A stretch of 64,000 nt of DNA from a virus. The stretch lies in the IMG/VR virus record IMGVR_UViG_3300037418_003024, positions 1 to 64,000 of that record; one strand, given 5' to 3'. The notes under the pieces are model-generated. The model had not been told where the DNA came from, made no database searches, and saw nothing but the letters and a program-made list of their open reading frames with translations. The position numbers and the translations under genes were made by a program. This document shows positions 1,822 through 49,362 of the stretch, piece by piece (the first letter of the stretch is position 1; each line of letters starts with the position of its first letter).

Positions 1822-2025
1822 ATGCCGTGGACGATGCAAGGACGATATGTCCGTATGGCACGCTGGAATCCGACTTATGAGCAATGGCGAACCGAGTGGC
1901 ACATGGTCGGCTCCGAGGCATTCGATAAGCTCGGTCGGAGCCTGCATTGGTTCTACGTTTTCTCTGGGTTGGGTAGGTCGCTGTACAATGAATCTGGACG
2001 ATTTTCGTTTGGATATCGAACCTAA
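1822..2025 (+). CDS. Small Trp-rich protein (MPWTM- start)
   Basis: ATG 1 nt after the previous stop; same first five residues as 9945..10106. Confidence 0.45.
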   Translation: MPWTMQGRYVRMARWNPTYEQWRTEWHMVGSEAFDKLGRSLHWFYVFSGLGRSLYNESGRFSFGYRT

Positions 2026-2190
2026 TTGCGGTCGTTGGACGCCGAAGCGACCGGTAGCCGGGCAGAAGAGTCAGGCATTCAAAGTCCTGTCCCCGAGACA
2101 AAAACAAATCAGGCGTGAGTTCGCAGACGCGGAAATCTAGGCCGAGTCCTCAGACTTCATCGCCCGGACGGGCGCACGGCCTAGTACAGA

Positions 2191-2430
2191 TTGAGAGGGT
2201 TATTCGTTTTGGGTCTAAATAAGAACCAGATGCAACGAAAGCTTGTCGATGCAAGTAAGCGGATGATCGATGTGTCGATAGAAGAACTGCAATTCGACAA
2301 ACACAAGATTAGCGCGCTGATGATATTTTATCATCACGACACCCGAACCGTAGCCGTGGTCGACAATGGAAATGGTGAAGCCCTTGCGGCTGATTACTTG
2401 AGCAGTATTGCTAAACGAAAGGCCAATTAG
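2191..2430 (+). CDS. Hypothetical protein
   Basis: 79-aa ORF filling the gap; start uncertain. Confidence 0.45.
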   Translation: MRGLFVLGLNKNQMQRKLVDASKRMIDVSIEELQFDKHKISALMIFYHHDTRTVAVVDNGNGEALAADYLSSIAKRKAN

Positions 2431-2435
2431 GAGAC

Positions 2436-2912
2436 TTGATGAAAAAGCTATTCTGGCAGGTTCCCGAAGAAAGCTCCGCAACGCACACAGCGTTCATGGG
2501 ACCGGTACATGATCCGGTAGGCGAGCCGGACGAACACGGCGACATTATCTGTGCGAGCGTTCTCGATAGTGGTCTCCAGCACTTCAATGCGCTGGGAAGC
2601 GTTGTCGACTATAATCACATGTACGAAAAGACGAGAGACCCGCGATGGATACTCTCGAAGGCCGAGCCGTTCTTGATAGACGAGGTACCGCATCTGCTGA
2701 TCCGCGTGCCTAACGATCACGAGTTCATCGAGAAGGTTAGAGCCCTTGGAACCGATTCGTTTCGTTTCGGGATTGCCGGCCATGCTCGGCACAATCCGAT
2801 TGAGCCCGGCGTAATCACTGAGATGTGGATTCACATGGTTTCGGTTTGCCCTGTGGCTGCTGTTGCGGAGGGATCGGAGATTGAGGAACGAAATGCGCGA
2901 AAGAATGCTTAG
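2436..2912 (+). CDS. Prohead-protease-like paralog, probably catalytically inactive
   Basis: Aligns by eye with 11517..12578 (VDYNHMYEKTRDPRWI vs IDYEHQYPKTKDPKWL) but has RFGIAG where the protease has GFSIWG. Confidence 0.65.
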   Translation: MMKKLFWQVPEESSATHTAFMGPVHDPVGEPDEHGDIICASVLDSGLQHFNALGSVVDYNHMYEKTRDPRWILSKAEPFLIDEVPHLLIRVPNDHEFIEKVRALGTDSFRFGIAGHARHNPIEPGVITEMWIHMVSVCPVAAVAEGSEIEERNARKNA

Positions 2913-3240
2913 GGTGTCTTCAAAGCAAGCGTCGGAGATCGGCGTCTTGGCGAATGACTGCCGGAGTGTTGTGGCTGTTAACTTTCACTGTGCTATGCGA
3001 GGTCAGACGGAAATCACTTTCGACGAAGCGCGATGGCTGGCCGGACTGCGCAATATCCTAGGCGTTGAGATTGTAGACGCTCTCATTGCTGACGGGCAAA
3101 CGACATCGGTCAATATAGTCGTCGACCGTTATCTTGATATGACGGAAGAAGAGAGGCAGCAGTGCGCGTCCGATAGAGCCGAACAGGTTGCAGCATACCT
3201 AAAGACATGCGCACTCTACTCGACAAGCATGCCTCCATAG
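2893..3240 (+). CDS. Hypothetical protein
   Basis: Coupled ORF, GAGGA RBS. Confidence 0.5.
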   Translation: MRERMLRVSSKQASEIGVLANDCRSVVAVNFHCAMRGQTEITFDEARWLAGLRNILGVEIVDALIADGQTTSVNIVVDRYLDMTEEERQQCASDRAEQVAAYLKTCALYSTSMPP

Positions 3241-6200
3241 CTCGCGAACTGACCGAATCCCTCGACCCGCATCGTGGCTACCGCCGCGAAATGTGGGGCG
3301 TTCGCCATGGCCGCCTCCGCGAACCCGGCATCCCCGCCTACCATGTAACCGCCCATCTGCCTCCTGACTTCTCCAAAGACGAAATCGGCCTCTTCCGCAA
3401 TCCGCTTGCCAAAGACCCAAAGACGGTCGCGCTCGTCAAGGCGGTCGACGCCAATCCCGACGGTTCCCGCTGGATAACGATCCATCCACACGGCGAAGAC
3501 GAGAAGGGGCAGCCGGTCCTCATCCACCCGAATCCTGACGGCTCCCACACAATCGTACGCGGGGCCGGCGGTGCCCTAAATGGCCTGCGCCTCACCGGCG
3601 TCAAGAGCGAGGAGGAGTACAAGCACCTGGCCCGGCAGCGGCGCGAGGAGAAAAAGGAGGCTATGCGGCAGAAAGAGGTTGCCGACCGGCAGCGGCTCGG
3701 GGCCGAAGCCTACGCGCAGCGCGTGGCCGATAAGCAGCAGAAGACGAAAGAGATCGCTGAGGCGAAGAGAGCGGCGGAACGGCAGTTCGTGGAGAAGGTC
3801 TTCGAAGCGCAGGGCATCGATAAAGCGCACCTCGACATTCCCAAAGAGAAGTTGGCCGGTGTTGCCGATGATAAGACCGCGCAACGGCTCCTGGACAAGC
3901 ACCATCAGAAGCTCGTGACGTACGCGAAGGCCGTGGCCGGATCGGTCAAGGAGATCGTGCGCGACGGGCTCGACCAGCTTTCGACCGACTCCGCCGGGGA
4001 ACTGGGCGTCTCCGACCTGGTGAACCAGACATTCGGCGGCGGGAACGGCTACGCCTCGCCCGCGAAGGTGCTCGCCGCCGACCTCGGCCTCGACGCCGCG
4101 GCGAAACAGGAGGCGGTAGCCGGGTTTCGCTTCCGTGATCTGCTCGAGCGCAATGACATGAACGTCGGCGCGGCGGCCGAGAAGCGTGAGCAGATCCAGG
4201 GCCGGACGGATGCGCGAAAGAAGGCGGAGTCGAAACTCAAGCAGGCCGCTCAGGAACTCGCCAAAGAAGGGGCCGGGCCGGAAGTCGTCAAGCAGTTCTC
4301 GGAGGTACCGAAGGTCGAGTCGATGGCGCAAGCCGTCGACATCCTGAAGGCCGCGCGCATGGCTGACCAGGCCGGGCAAGCGGCACAATCGCTTAAGCAT
4401 GAACTCGACATGGCCGACGACCTCGACAAGCTTCCGAGGGCGTCGGTCGTCGTCGCGAAACCGATGAGCGATGCGGAGGCCAAGGATGCGATTGCGGCTA
4501 CTCTTGGCGAAGAGTCCATGCAGCACGCGATGACGCGCCTGGTCAAGACGTCCAACGATCTTGAGCGCGAGTATGGCACGCTGAGGCAGCATTACTCCGT
4601 CGGGGCCGCTCTCGCGTTCAATACCATCGCGCAGGCCGTCGACGGGCAGACGGTCGACCCGATGCTGCACGATATCCTGGGCACGTCCGGCGCGGCGGCG
4701 GCCATCGTCGCCGGCTGGCGTCAGTCCCTCGGCGAGGACGGTTTTGCGAAGCTGAAGGACGTGCTCGCGAAGCAGCATATCAAGACCCAAGAGGATCTTG
4801 CGAACACGGCGACCGACGAAGCCAACGAGTACCTCGACCAGCACGAGGAGCTAATCAAGAACGCGATCGACCCCGACTCGCCGGAAGGGCTGGCGGCGGC
4901 CGTGCAACAGCACGCCGAACGAACGGAACTTCTCGCCCGCGCTCGTGAGTCGGTGGGGGTTGCCCGCGGGCGTCTCGAAGCGGCGGCGGCGCTCAATGAA
5001 GCGATGATGAAGGCCGGCGACAAGCCGGTACAGATTTCGCTAGGCAACATGCCGCTCGGCGACGCGCTCGCCAACTGCTACGCACTCGGCCTCACCGACC
5101 CCGTCAAGTTCGACAAGAACACTGGCGAGGTGCAGCAGGAAGGCGACTACGAGCTTTCGCGCGATGCGGAGAATACGATACTGACGATTCACCCGTCCGG
5201 ATTGTCGAAGCTGACCAGGGCGCCTGACCCGGAGCTCATCGAGCGCGCCGACAGATCGGCCGCAATCAAGGCCGGAAAGTTCGACGAACCCGACTGGCTG
5301 CCCAAAGGCATCAGCGATCGGCCACGCACCTCCTACAATGCCGACCCGCTCGAACGCAACTCCATCGACCATCAACTCGAACTGACCGCGAACATGACCG
5401 GCCCGCGCATGGCGGATGCCATCAAGGGACACATCGGCGCCTTACTGAACGCCGGCCGCGATCCTGACGATATCGCTTCGAAACTCCGGTCGGAGGAATT
5501 CGTTGGCGGATTGAACCTCTCGCCCGAAGCAGAGGCACGGTACTTGAAGGCGGTCAACGAAGTCGCGCCTGTCTTCTCGTCGAAGCCGGGACTGTCGGAA
5601 TCGGAGCGCGTCGAGGAGTTCAAGCAGTTCCAAGAAAAGCGCAAGGCCGTGTTTTCTCATTGTCTGGCGCAACATCTGGCGGCGGAAGCGAAAGCAGGTC
5701 GCCTCAATGCGATCGCGGCCGGGCTCGACAAACAGACGGTACCGACGGATGCACGTACTCATGATGCGTTGTACGTGGCGGCCCTCGCCGACCCTCGCAC
5801 CCGATTCGCGTTCCATAAGTTCGGCGATCTCGGCGACGATGGCCGGGCGGCTGTTCGCGCCTACGCCTATGAACACCTCTTCGGCATGGACCCCAAAACC
5901 GACGGCGACCAGATCATAACCCCGCTCACGGATCAACAACGGAAAGCCTTCGAGCAGTGGCGCGAATTCGACCACGGCAAAGGCGACCCGTACAGCGTCA
6001 TTCAGGAGCACTGGCGCAAGCAGGATGAGGACAACGCCGGGCTCTTCGGCGAGCCGGAAATACACCCGATTGCGGCCGTCGACATGACGAACGATGCGGC
6101 CGTCGTCGAGGCCGCCCACAAGTCGCCTCAGATGCTCGGGTACAAGCCGATGCGCACCGAGGGTAAGGACATCTACCCGGAACTGGAAGTAGGAAGCCGG

Positions 6201-10846: not shown

Positions 10847-10921
10847 CGCGTTGTAGAGCAGCCTGGTAGCTCGTCGGGCTCATAACCCCGAAGGTCGTTG
10901 GTTCAAATCCAACCGGCGCGC
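10847..10921 (+). tRNA. tRNA-Met(CAT), initiator-like body, atypical
   Basis: Near-identical to the bacterial tRNA-fMet core (GAGCAGCCTGGTAGCTCGTCGGGCTCATAA), T arm GTTGG-TTCAAAT-CCAAC; extra C in the anticodon arm, C1-G72 pair, no encoded CCA. Confidence 0.85.
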
Positions 10922-47326: not shown

Positions 47327-47551
47327 ATGTCCGACCGCGAAGAGGCTGTGTTCTTGAATGCAGTTCGATCGCTCGAAAAGACCGTCGAGAGACTTGCGAC
47401 GACCGTGGAAAAGCACGGGGAGCAACTAGCGGCCATGGAGGCGAGGCATCAACAGGCTACGCACAACCAGCTGCTTATTGCCACGATCGCCAGTGGATTA
47501 TTCTGCGGTATCGGCGTTTTCATCCTCGATCATCTTCATCTGTTCCATTGA
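47327..47551 (+). CDS. XhlA/holin-like protein
   Basis: Coiled coil plus one C-terminal TM helix; before the endolysin. Confidence 0.6.
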   Translation: MSDREEAVFLNAVRSLEKTVERLATTVEKHGEQLAAMEARHQQATHNQLLIATIASGLFCGIGVFILDHLHLFH

Positions 47552-47556
47552 TCTGA

Positions 47557-47588
47557 GTCGACGCCTCGGCGTCTATGAGGATTGAAAC
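47557..47588 (+). repeat. Solitary CRISPR-repeat-like unit A
   Basis: GTC-GACGC-CTCG-GCGTC-TATGAGGATTGAAAC, 32 nt. Confidence 0.6.
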
Positions 47589-47606
47589 CACCAAGGGGGC
47601 AAAACC

Positions 47607-47990
47607 ATGTCCGAACCTACTACTCCGTCGCCCACAGCGGCGGCGCCATCGTTTGAGCCGCAAAGCTGGCTTTCGGCTCACCTGGGCCTCGACAAGCATC
47701 CCGACCTCGAATCGACCGTCAACAAAGTGCTCGGCACTGCGGCGGCCGCCGCCGGCGCGGATGTGAACGCCGCGGTTTCGCAGGCAGTATCGTCCGGCAC
47801 GATCACGCAGCCGGAGGTCGTGAATACGGCCGTCACCGCGCTCAAGGACGCCGGCGCGACGATCAGTGCGTCCGACGTCACACTCGTCATCGACGCCATC
47901 ATCGACCATGTGCCGGTCATGAACTCGATGGAGCGCATCGTTGCCAAGACGCTCGCGAACGGGCTCATCGGGCTGATCTTTCACAAGTAG
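47607..47990 (+). CDS. Hypothetical lysis-cassette protein
   Basis: GGGGG RBS; amphipathic; lies between the two repeat units. Confidence 0.65.
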   Translation: MSEPTTPSPTAAAPSFEPQSWLSAHLGLDKHPDLESTVNKVLGTAAAAAGADVNAAVSQAVSSGTITQPEVVNTAVTALKDAGATISASDVTLVIDAIIDHVPVMNSMERIVAKTLANGLIGLIFHK

Positions 47991-48029
47991 TCGCGCCGGC
48001 GCTTTTAGCGCGTCGGTGAGGATTGAAAC
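47990..48029 (+). repeat. Solitary CRISPR-repeat-like unit B
   Basis: GTCGCGCCGGCGCTTTTAGCGCGTCGGTGAGGATTGAAAC, 40 nt; hairpin plus ATTGAAAC end. Confidence 0.7.
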
Positions 48030-48030
48030 C

Positions 48031-48645
48031 ATGGGAAAAGGCCTCGATTCCGCATCGTCGCTCATGGGGCTCGGCCCGCAATTGCGGCAGCTTGGCTTCT
48101 CCTGGGTCGAGCGCTATCTGTACAAGCCGGGCACGTCGCGTTTCAAGCAACTTCTGACAAAGTCGGAGGCGATTGACCTCTCTAAAGCCGGGCTGTACAT
48201 CGTCACGGTATGGGAGAGCGGGTATCCGACCACGCCGGACTACTTCACCTCGGCGCGCGGGCATGACGACGCGGCGATGGCCTACGACCTGGCGTTCGCT
48301 TGCGGGCAACCGACCGCGACGCCGATACGGATGGCCTGCGACGGCGACATGGATCCTGCCGCCGTCATCGACTATTTCGAAACCGCCACCCTGCTGTTTA
48401 AAAAACTGGGTGGCCGTTATCGCCCTGGCGTGTACGGAAGCGGCGCAGTCATTGAGGCACTCGTATCCCGCGGGATCGTGCTTCCGGGCGACGTGCAGCT
48501 CGCCCAGTCTAAGGGTTGGCAGCACTACTCCGACGAAGAGGCGCGGGCGGCGATTGTGCAGGGCGTTGAGGCAACGATTCTCGGCCGAGACATCGATCTC
48601 GACTTCTCGAATGGTGCGGCGGGGGGCTGGAGAATCGCCGTGTGA
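48031..48645 (+). CDS. Endolysin, DUF1906/GH25-like glycoside hydrolase
   Basis: GLDSAS...WVERYL...LTKSEA...GLYIVTVWE...ACDGD...YRPGVYGSG...DIDLD. Confidence 0.8.
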   Translation: MGKGLDSASSLMGLGPQLRQLGFSWVERYLYKPGTSRFKQLLTKSEAIDLSKAGLYIVTVWESGYPTTPDYFTSARGHDDAAMAYDLAFACGQPTATPIRMACDGDMDPAAVIDYFETATLLFKKLGGRYRPGVYGSGAVIEALVSRGIVLPGDVQLAQSKGWQHYSDEEARAAIVQGVEATILGRDIDLDFSNGAAGGWRIAV

Positions 48646-48738
48646 GTTTGGCGTGCTGATGCGCGCCTCTAGGTGCTGCGGCCGGCGCTGATCGCGCCCC
48701 CTGGCCACGTCGGTCGCGGCATTTTTGGAAACGGACCA

Positions 48739-49305
48739 ATGGAATTGCTGACTGCTGTTGTTGGCGGGATGATCGGATTCCTAGGCCACCACATTCTTTT
48801 CGGGAGAAAAATTATGTCACAGCTTGATGATCTGGCCGCCGCGCAAGCGCGGGAGGCCGCCAATATACAGGCCCTCGCGTCGGGGTTGCAGGCCCTTTCC
48901 GACAACCTCACGAAGACGCTCGGCGATATGAAGACGGCCGTCGATGCGTCGAAGGTTTCCGGTAACACGCCGGATCTCACCGGGTTCATCGAAGTGGCTC
49001 AGAAGAACGCCTCGGCGATCGGTCAGGCGATCACGGACCTCAACGCCATTCAGGCGACGGTGGTCGCTGCCGACCCGTCCGCATCCGTCGCCGTGCCCGA
49101 ACCCGTTGCGGAAGCGCCGGCAGCACCGGCAGCCGATACGGCGGCGGATCCCGCGCCGGTGTCCGATGCTCCGGTGAGTGGTGATACGACCGCGGAGGCG
49201 CCGTCGACCGAGTCGACCGACGCGACGACGCCCGAAGTCGCGACCGAGACCGCCACCACGGGCGCGACCACGTCCGAGGCGCAGGGCGAACAGCCGGGCA
49301 ACTAA
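48739..49305 (+). CDS. Membrane-anchored coiled-coil protein with acidic P/A/T tail
   Basis: Possible N-terminal TM (alternative ATG at 48814); end of the lysis cassette. Confidence 0.6.
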   Translation: MELLTAVVGGMIGFLGHHILFGRKIMSQLDDLAAAQAREAANIQALASGLQALSDNLTKTLGDMKTAVDASKVSGNTPDLTGFIEVAQKNASAIGQAITDLNAIQATVVAADPSASVAVPEPVAEAPAAPAADTAADPAPVSDAPVSGDTTAEAPSTESTDATTPEVATETATTGATTSEAQGEQPGN

Positions 49306-49334: not shown

Positions 49335-49362
49335 ACAGCCTCCGGCCGAAACCGGAGGCTGT
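49335..49362. terminator. Terminator between convergent late operon and integrase
   Basis: ACAGCCTCCGG-CCGAAA-CCGGAGGCTGT; T tract on the minus strand. Confidence 0.7.

Follow-up and report, generated by a model that had tools for sequence, protein, structure and literature searches.

A solitary type I-C-family CRISPR repeat abuts the endolysin gene of an uncultured phage and may be an RNA decoy against host immunity

Directly in front of the endolysin gene of an uncultured phage we find a 40-nt sequence (unit B) which sequence and predicted structure identify as a true lone copy of a CRISPR repeat, belonging to a 37-nt family of type I-C. It is embedded in an operon, and its 3′ end, the handle, supplies the endolysin gene with its only Shine–Dalgarno sequence. 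The reading that we tentatively favour, at somewhat short of an even chance, is that unit B is a Racr-like RNA decoy against host type I-C immunity which is carried on the late mRNA.

The phage record is linear, has a length of 94.7 kb and belongs to an uncultured IMG/VR virus of the rhizosphere, an origin consistent with the sequencing runs that contain it. The stretch that was analysed, called the window here, is its initial 64 kb (64,000 nt). The following features are referred to throughout:

47327..47551, plus strand: 74-aa protein, holin-like, with a C-terminal transmembrane segment (hydropathy peak 2.44 at residues 49–67)
47557–47588, plus strand: unit A, GTCGACGCCTCGGCGTCTATGAGGATTGAAAC, 32 nt, degenerate repeat-like unit
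47576–47590 and 48017–48031, plus strand: 15-nt identity TGAGGATTGAAACCA, extending 2 nt past the repeat end
47607..47990, plus strand: 127-aa acidic orphan between units A and B (pI 4.9, soluble)
47990–48029, plus strand: unit B, GTCGCGCCGGCGCTTTTAGCGCGTCGGTGAGGATTGAAAC, 40 nt, copy of a type I-C-family CRISPR repeat
48018..48019, plus strand: predicted Cas5c cleavage point, placed from the fold at the 3′ stem base, followed by the 11-nt handle
48031..48645, plus strand: endolysin with an Rv2525c-like glycoside hydrolase domain (PF08924, E 6e-19; phrog_13480)
48739..49305, plus strand: 188-aa protein with an N-terminal transmembrane segment and an acidic tail, terminal gene of the operon

These genes form a compact plus-strand operon (47327–49305) located 3′ of a gene for an 822-aa tail-type protein. 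The operon ends at a bidirectional terminator (49335–49362), behind which a minus-strand integrase gene follows. The preliminary description had called this region a lysis cassette. Homology supports a lysis assignment for the endolysin only, which distantly matches the lysin A of a Mycobacterium prophage and the endolysin of an Alicyclobacillus phage; its two neighbours each have one predicted transmembrane segment. The 74-aa protein has no match in Pfam or PHROG, and the 188-aa protein becomes 210 aa long if the GTG at 48673 is taken as its start. The window had been described as free of cas genes, and this holds for the entire 94.7-kb record, in which no Cas5, Cas7(Csd2) or Cas8c was found. 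No usable relative of the cassette came from blastn against phages, from homologous-protein searches or from searching viral contigs for loci that encode the endolysin or the 127-aa protein, and a metagenome scan with a two-sequence alignment gave only an unrelated low-GC locus (L153). Elsewhere the phage encodes several sigma factors, the third of which (435 aa, with regions 2, 3 and 4; genome 71208–72515, L154:7208–8515) is encoded directly 5′ of a terminase-like gene. At 10847–10921 of the window a tRNA-like gene is called by ARAGORN; its anticodon loop is read as four bases (cata), and no amino acid is assigned to it.

In order to place the units among bacterial repeats, species-representative genomes were scanned for two successive GTCG...TGAGGATTGAAAC units. 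The scan yielded at least 120 loci, and those listed come from Chloroflexota, Armatimonadota, Deinococcota (Thermus, Meiothermus), Bacillota, Actinomycetota, Acidobacteriota and other phyla. The family repeat has 37 nt and consists of GT(T/C/A)GCAC, a 9-bp stem, a 4-nt loop and GTG-AGGATTGAAAC. In 77 distinct array repeats the stem is 95.8% paired and seven of the nine pairs show compensatory changes, a degree of covariation that was reached by none of 500 shuffles. The arrays and the covariance model built from them were chosen by the handle motif, and the handle columns are thus invariant in the 77 repeats, so that the independent information comes from the GTCGC start, from the stem and the register that it keeps, and from a match to Rfam. 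The arrays adjoin genes for Cas8c(Csd1)-Cas7(Csd2)-Cas1, Cas7-Cas1 or Cas4-Cas1 (L076, L112, L050), and Cas8c/Csd1 is present in three of five further genomes, in one of them on the contig of the array itself. On account of the adjacent Cas8c/Csd1 and Cas7/Csd2 genes and the Csd1 genes in the further genomes we assign the array family to type I-C. Unit B had been likened to a Thermus-type repeat with the ending CCGGTGAGGATTGAAAC, and this ending does occur in arrays of Thermaceae.

Unit B is made up of a 4-nt GUCG, a 9-bp stem, a 7-nt loop and the 11-nt handle AGGAUUGAAAC. The covariance model of the 77 array repeats matches it over its full length with all nine stem pairs in register, at a score of 40.8 bits and with an E of 1.2e-9 when both strands of the entire phage are searched. 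The Rfam family CRISPR-DR9 also matches, with 24.3 bits and an E of 0.0097 in a search of 1.2 kb, which is below threshold but specific. Its predicted fold is that of genuine array repeats, namely 4 nt, nine pairs, a loop and a single-stranded 11-nt handle; the z-score of the hairpin is a modest -2.1. With the array repeats GT(T/C/A)GCAC..GTGAGGATTGAAAC it shares the 5′ GTCGC start, the 9-bp stem abutting the AGGAUUGAAAC handle and the predicted fold; unlike them it is solitary, has neither spacers nor a leader, and has a loop of 7 nt rather than 4. At the sequence level the best blastn match among the array repeats listed (314 variants) covers 18 contiguous nt and gives 36.2 bits, less than the published SRUFinder threshold for sequence matches of 41.1 bits, and the stem sequence of unit B was not seen in any array repeat examined.

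The position of unit B is that of a solitary repeat. It is intergenic in a mobile element with no second repeat within 100 bp and no cas genes, it wholly occupies the gap in front of the endolysin gene (47991–48030), and its first G is the last base of the TAG stop codon of the 127-aa gene. The two units do not make up a CRISPR array, as there are only two of them, and what separates them is 401 nt with a protein gene and not a spacer of about 33–40 nt. No further copy of the repeat was found by the model in the 94.7 kb beyond units A and B. An intrinsic terminator was not called at either unit; there is no U-tract, and the hairpins run into AGGATTGAAAC. Beyond the window, at genome 72532–72553 (L154:8532–8553), a perfectly palindromic hairpin, CACCGGCTACTTACAGCCGGTG, separates the gene of a full-length sigma factor from the terminase-like gene. 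It has no handle, matches the type I-C repeat model in the stem portion (15.7 bits, E 0.05), and could be an ordinary terminator or what is left of a repeat reduced to its stem.

Unit A is a different case. Recalculation from the sequence reproduced the coordinates, lengths and sequences reported for both units as well as their bracketing of an entire gene. The hallmarks of class 1 repeats that had been ascribed to the pair, however, hold for unit B, and there specifically as type I-C, and are weakened in unit A, which is a poor repeat. Unit A consists of GUCG, a 5-bp stem, a 4-nt loop, UAUG and then the same 11-nt handle as in unit B, its predicted fold has an energy of -9.3 kcal/mol (z -1.47), and its stem stops 4 nt ahead of the handle and is thus out of register. 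The model aligns it through the handle alone and gives 21.7 bits (E 8e-4), within the range of pattern-only chance matches (20–26 bits), and its best blastn match among the same 314 listed variants has 14 nt and 28.2 bits. Likewise, both gaps had been described as nearly filled by the units; this is true of the second gap, whereas unit A takes up 32 of the 55 nt (58%) of the first (47552–47606). From its sequence we regard unit A as most likely a degenerate second copy that has kept only the handle. A GTCGC motif with a 4-bp hairpin is present at 47627, 38 nt 3′ of unit A.

The two units do share their 3′ ends and differ in their stems, as described; the identity is 15 nt long, not 13. It comprises the handle, which is exact in both units, and the UG preceding it, and in its second occurrence (48017–48031) it includes the Shine–Dalgarno sequence GAGGA and the A of the endolysin ATG. 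The exact 13-mer occurs at two places in the window, where 1.1 would be expected even with two mismatches allowed, and the only two GGATTGAAAC sites of the 94.7-kb record are in these adjacent gaps.

Only 1 nt separates unit B from the endolysin ATG at 48031, and the GAGGA within the handle is the only Shine–Dalgarno sequence of this gene. This arrangement had been pointed out before and is borne out by our analysis; a homologue with 52% identity begins at the equivalent position. The 127-aa gene has a ribosome site of its own, AAGGGGG, and unit A lies 18 nt away from the gene.

Solitary copies of the repeat family are also present in other viruses. In three scans of viral contigs we found about 22 high-scoring copies in other uncultured phages and proviruses. 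The model scores on 55 viral loci are bimodal, with genuine copies at 37–61 bits and pattern-only matches at 20–26 bits; unit B belongs to the former group and unit A to the latter. The other copies sit in short gaps inside operons, often 0–8 nt past a stop codon, and several elements bear two of them (L011, L163, L170). At four loci (L173, L160, L008 and L165) an ATG follows 0–5 nt 3′ of the repeat, and the GAGGA of the handle is likely to act as a Shine–Dalgarno sequence there, too. Counting the ten copies with Pfam-supported neighbours on the same strand, as our own gene calls are crude, the neighbours encode an integrase, a sigma factor, Mu gp36, a small terminase-like protein (TerS), a major capsid protein, RecT, an S24 repressor, an IS200 transposase, a helicase, an HTH protein and an Amidase_3 endolysin. 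The last case (L023), in which the repeat is 79 nt upstream of the gene, is the sole other copy near an endolysin. A lysis-specific association was discarded, as an endolysin is near only 2 of about 23 independent loci, not above expectation. Embedding in operons and the occasional use of the handle as ribosome site are habits of the repeat family.

Three of these loci deserve a description of their own. In L173 the solitary repeat (3218–3254, minus strand) runs right up to the ATG of a gene for a tyrosine integrase (1967–3217, minus strand) situated close to where the locus ends, and this layout raises the question of an element integrating beside or into a CRISPR array. In L011 (151–798, plus strand) an ORF of 115 aa and unknown function is followed by a type I-C repeat (533–569) and an HTH_31/HTH_3 gene, an order that by analogy looks like an acr-racr-aca layout, and a second, identical repeat is found 4 kb downstream behind a helicase gene. 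In L170 (1801–2005, plus strand) two unlike repeats 133 nt apart are located 5′ of the small-terminase-like gene, which parallels the unlike units A and B in our window.

The gene enclosed by the two units encodes an orphan. No homologue of the 127-aa protein was found in viral contigs, in a homologous-protein search, in the ESM Atlas or in a PDB sequence search, no transmembrane segment is predicted, and the AlphaFold model is helical and of low confidence (pLDDT 59). A strain with roughly 1% divergence was found in four root RNA libraries of one study and in a DNA run from another sample. All five differences listed for the 127-aa gene are at third codon positions, which argues that the gene is real and under purifying selection; its GC3 of 0.81 is like that of its neighbours, and it is thus not compositionally foreign. 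Speculatively, the protein could be a new anti-CRISPR protein. Unit B and the handle of unit A are free of listed strain differences. In the operon's final gene, 24 listed differences, many of them non-synonymous, are crowded into about 130 nt (window 48813–48940), compared with about 1% divergence in the adjoining genes, and this segment is mosaic or fast-evolving.

Contigs from the RNA libraries bridge both units (47421–48222) or unit B alone and are uncut, a weak hint at co-transcription of the units, as DNA carry-over is possible. Breaks of contigs near 47553, 47568 and 47984 were dismissed as signs of cleavage because assembled contigs cannot reveal RNA ends. Racrs are usually expressed from a promoter within 250 bp; a sigma-70-like promoter was not found near the units, but such a scan may be unsuited to a phage that encodes its own sigma factors.

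With respect to the host, none of the 3391 spacers from the listed arrays of the repeat family matches the phage beyond 16 nt. The terminase-like protein is distantly related (about 26%) to the terminases of Streptomyces, Rhodococcus, Bacillus and Thermus phages, and a phage sigma factor resembles SigB/SigF-type factors, which we take as a lead only. Based on the relatives of the terminase and the endolysin a host from the Terrabacteria is likely, and this fits the phyla in which the repeat family occurs.

Solitary repeat units were first listed by Faure et al. 2019, and Camara-Wilpert et al. 2023 described Racrs, i.e., viral solitary repeat units that act as RNA anti-CRISPRs by pulling Cas subunits into aberrant complexes (PMC10651486). 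What the Cas5c nuclease recognises is the cut site together with the handle, whereas an altered loop or 5′ overhang is tolerated (PMC8524198). We favour the decoy reading because unit B supplies the very elements that Cas5c recognises, the stem base and the handle. Without a promoter of their own the units would be transcribed within the polycistronic late mRNA. If the host has a type I-C system, Cas5c would recognise the stem base and the AGGAUUGAAAC handle and cut between 48018 and 48019, Cas5c and Cas7 would assemble on an RNA that has neither a spacer nor a downstream repeat, and Cascade subunits would be locked in dead-end complexes as with RacrIF1 and RacrIC1. The handle, by happenstance a good Shine–Dalgarno sequence plus spacer, would have been co-opted as ribosome-binding site of the endolysin in a compact genome. 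A Racr-like role had already been suggested for the units; with unit B placed in the type I-C family and solitary copies present in other phages, it is the most economical reading.

The closest known counterpart is RacrIC1, which is located 11 nt behind acrIC5 on one bicistronic RNA (PMC10651486). Like RacrIC1, unit B is a lone type I-C repeat in an intergenic region of a phage without cas genes, has kept stem and handle, and follows right behind the gene of a small protein on what is probably a common transcript. In contrast to RacrIC1, however, no promoter of its own was found, it resides in a late lysis operon, whereas RacrIC1 belongs to an early locus of anti-defence genes, there are two units of unlike sequence with a gene between them, the endolysin uses the handle as ribosome-binding site, and the identity to known repeats is under the SRUFinder threshold; the anti-CRISPR role here is a prediction, as is a match to the system of the host. 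Several of our observations count against a decoy. Late expression is poor timing for an anti-CRISPR, none of the 3391 spacers of the listed arrays matches, no sigma-70-like promoter was seen, the sequence match stays below the SRUFinder threshold, unit A fails structurally, and the RNA-library contigs, with the possibility of DNA carry-over, are intact across both units.

The main rival, which we consider rather unlikely, is that the units are relics, i.e., that a solitary repeat, or part of a host array, was acquired on one occasion and has no CRISPR function now. The 15-nt identity would then be a duplication or recombination junction, the 127-aa gene would have been inserted as a moron, and only the hairpin and the ribosome-binding site would be under selection. 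Such a scar could explain why the identity runs 2 nt beyond the repeat end, why unit A retains the handle only, why the handle coincides with the Shine–Dalgarno sequence of the endolysin and a start codon likewise follows the repeat at four other loci, and why neither a promoter near the units nor, among the repeats listed, a close array match to unit B was found. Against a relic, unit B has a perfect 9-pair stem in the exact register for Cas5c, although the sequence of this stem is unlike that of every array repeat seen. Moreover, the GC3 of the supposedly inserted gene resembles that of its neighbours, and solitary copies of the family recur in many phages with intact stems.

Unit B might also act in cis on lysis. 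Host Cas5c would cut between the 127-aa gene and the endolysin gene, and loading of Cas5c and Cas7 on the handle would mask the Shine–Dalgarno sequence and the start of the endolysin, so that endolysin output and with it the timing of lysis would track host type I-C activity; we judge this to be improbable. The double role of the handle and the ATG only 1 nt behind it speak for such a control, as do the recurrence of this order ahead of an integrase gene and other genes and the solitary repeat upstream of the Amidase_3 endolysin. On the other hand, the neighbours of the other copies (sigma factor, TerS, capsid, RecT, repressor, helicase, HTH) are not lysis-specific, Cas-dependent repression of the endolysin brings no apparent benefit to the phage, unit A lies 18 nt from a gene with its own ribosome site, and, as weak evidence, the RNA-library contigs span unit B uncut. 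A CRISPR-sensing lysis control as put forward in the preliminary description therefore finds no backing in the varied neighbourhoods of the other copies, just one of which is near an endolysin. Nor do we agree with the cut site implied there, as Cas5c would cut before AGGAUUGAAAC and the Shine–Dalgarno sequence would stay on the endolysin fragment. The endolysin message would be predicted from this cut to have AGGAUUGAAAC-C-AUG as its 5′ end. In a wider form, which we rate a little lower still, the use of the handle as ribosome-binding site would make translation of the endolysin sensitive to loading of Cas5c and Cas7, and type I-C repeats abutting start codons would be Cas-dependent translational switches or mRNA-processing sites.

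Engineered Csy4/Cas6 cleavage sites reportedly insulate genes in synthetic operons, as is said to have been shown by Qi and colleagues in 2012. Like unit B these are repeat hairpins between cistrons that would split the mRNA given the nuclease; unlike the phage units they are an artificial design. We know of no natural phage example of intercistronic repeat cleavage with a demonstrated effect.

It is very doubtful that the units function as a crlRNA or Cracr, in which the handle and the next roughly 35 nt would guide host Cascade to repress cas or toxin promoters. Phage crlRNAs from repeat-like units have been described (bioRxiv 10.1101/2024.10.29.618823), unit B resembles these mini-arrays in that a phage would supply an RNA derived from a repeat for the Cas proteins of its host to engage with, and the GTCGC motif past unit A could be counted in favour. 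These systems, however, need a repeat, a short guide and a second, often degenerate repeat, whereas here a protein gene separates the units. With the covariance model, filters off and E values up to 10, no second repeat was found at spacer distance after either unit, and the would-be guides consist of a ribosome site and the first codons of protein genes. Finally, that GC-rich intercistronic hairpins came to lie beside a strong ribosome-binding site by chance would suit the score of unit A and the modest hairpin z-scores (-1.5 and -2.1) but is hardly credible for unit B, with an E of about 1e-9 for the full structure, an exact 13-mer occurring twice and both GGATTGAAAC sites of the record in adjacent gaps.

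Solitary repeats and Racrs, including those of type I-C within operons, are already published; no paper turned up when the literature was searched for solitary CRISPR repeats in connection with holin and endolysin. What is new here is modest, namely two unlike units that bracket an orphan gene and a handle that is the ribosome-binding site of an endolysin. The junctions of repeat and ATG in several unrelated phages hint that Cas RNA-binding proteins might affect phage expression in cis, and, if this were true, phages would read out or exploit host CRISPR activity by means of repeats that abut the starts of endolysin, integrase and other genes. If unit B is indeed a decoy, RNA anti-CRISPRs would extend to the widespread 37-nt type I-C family of soil Terrabacteria, they could be carried by late structural or lysis mRNAs and need no promoter themselves, and their handle could double as a ribosome-binding site. 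The bracketed 127-aa orphan would then become a cheap candidate for an anti-CRISPR protein.
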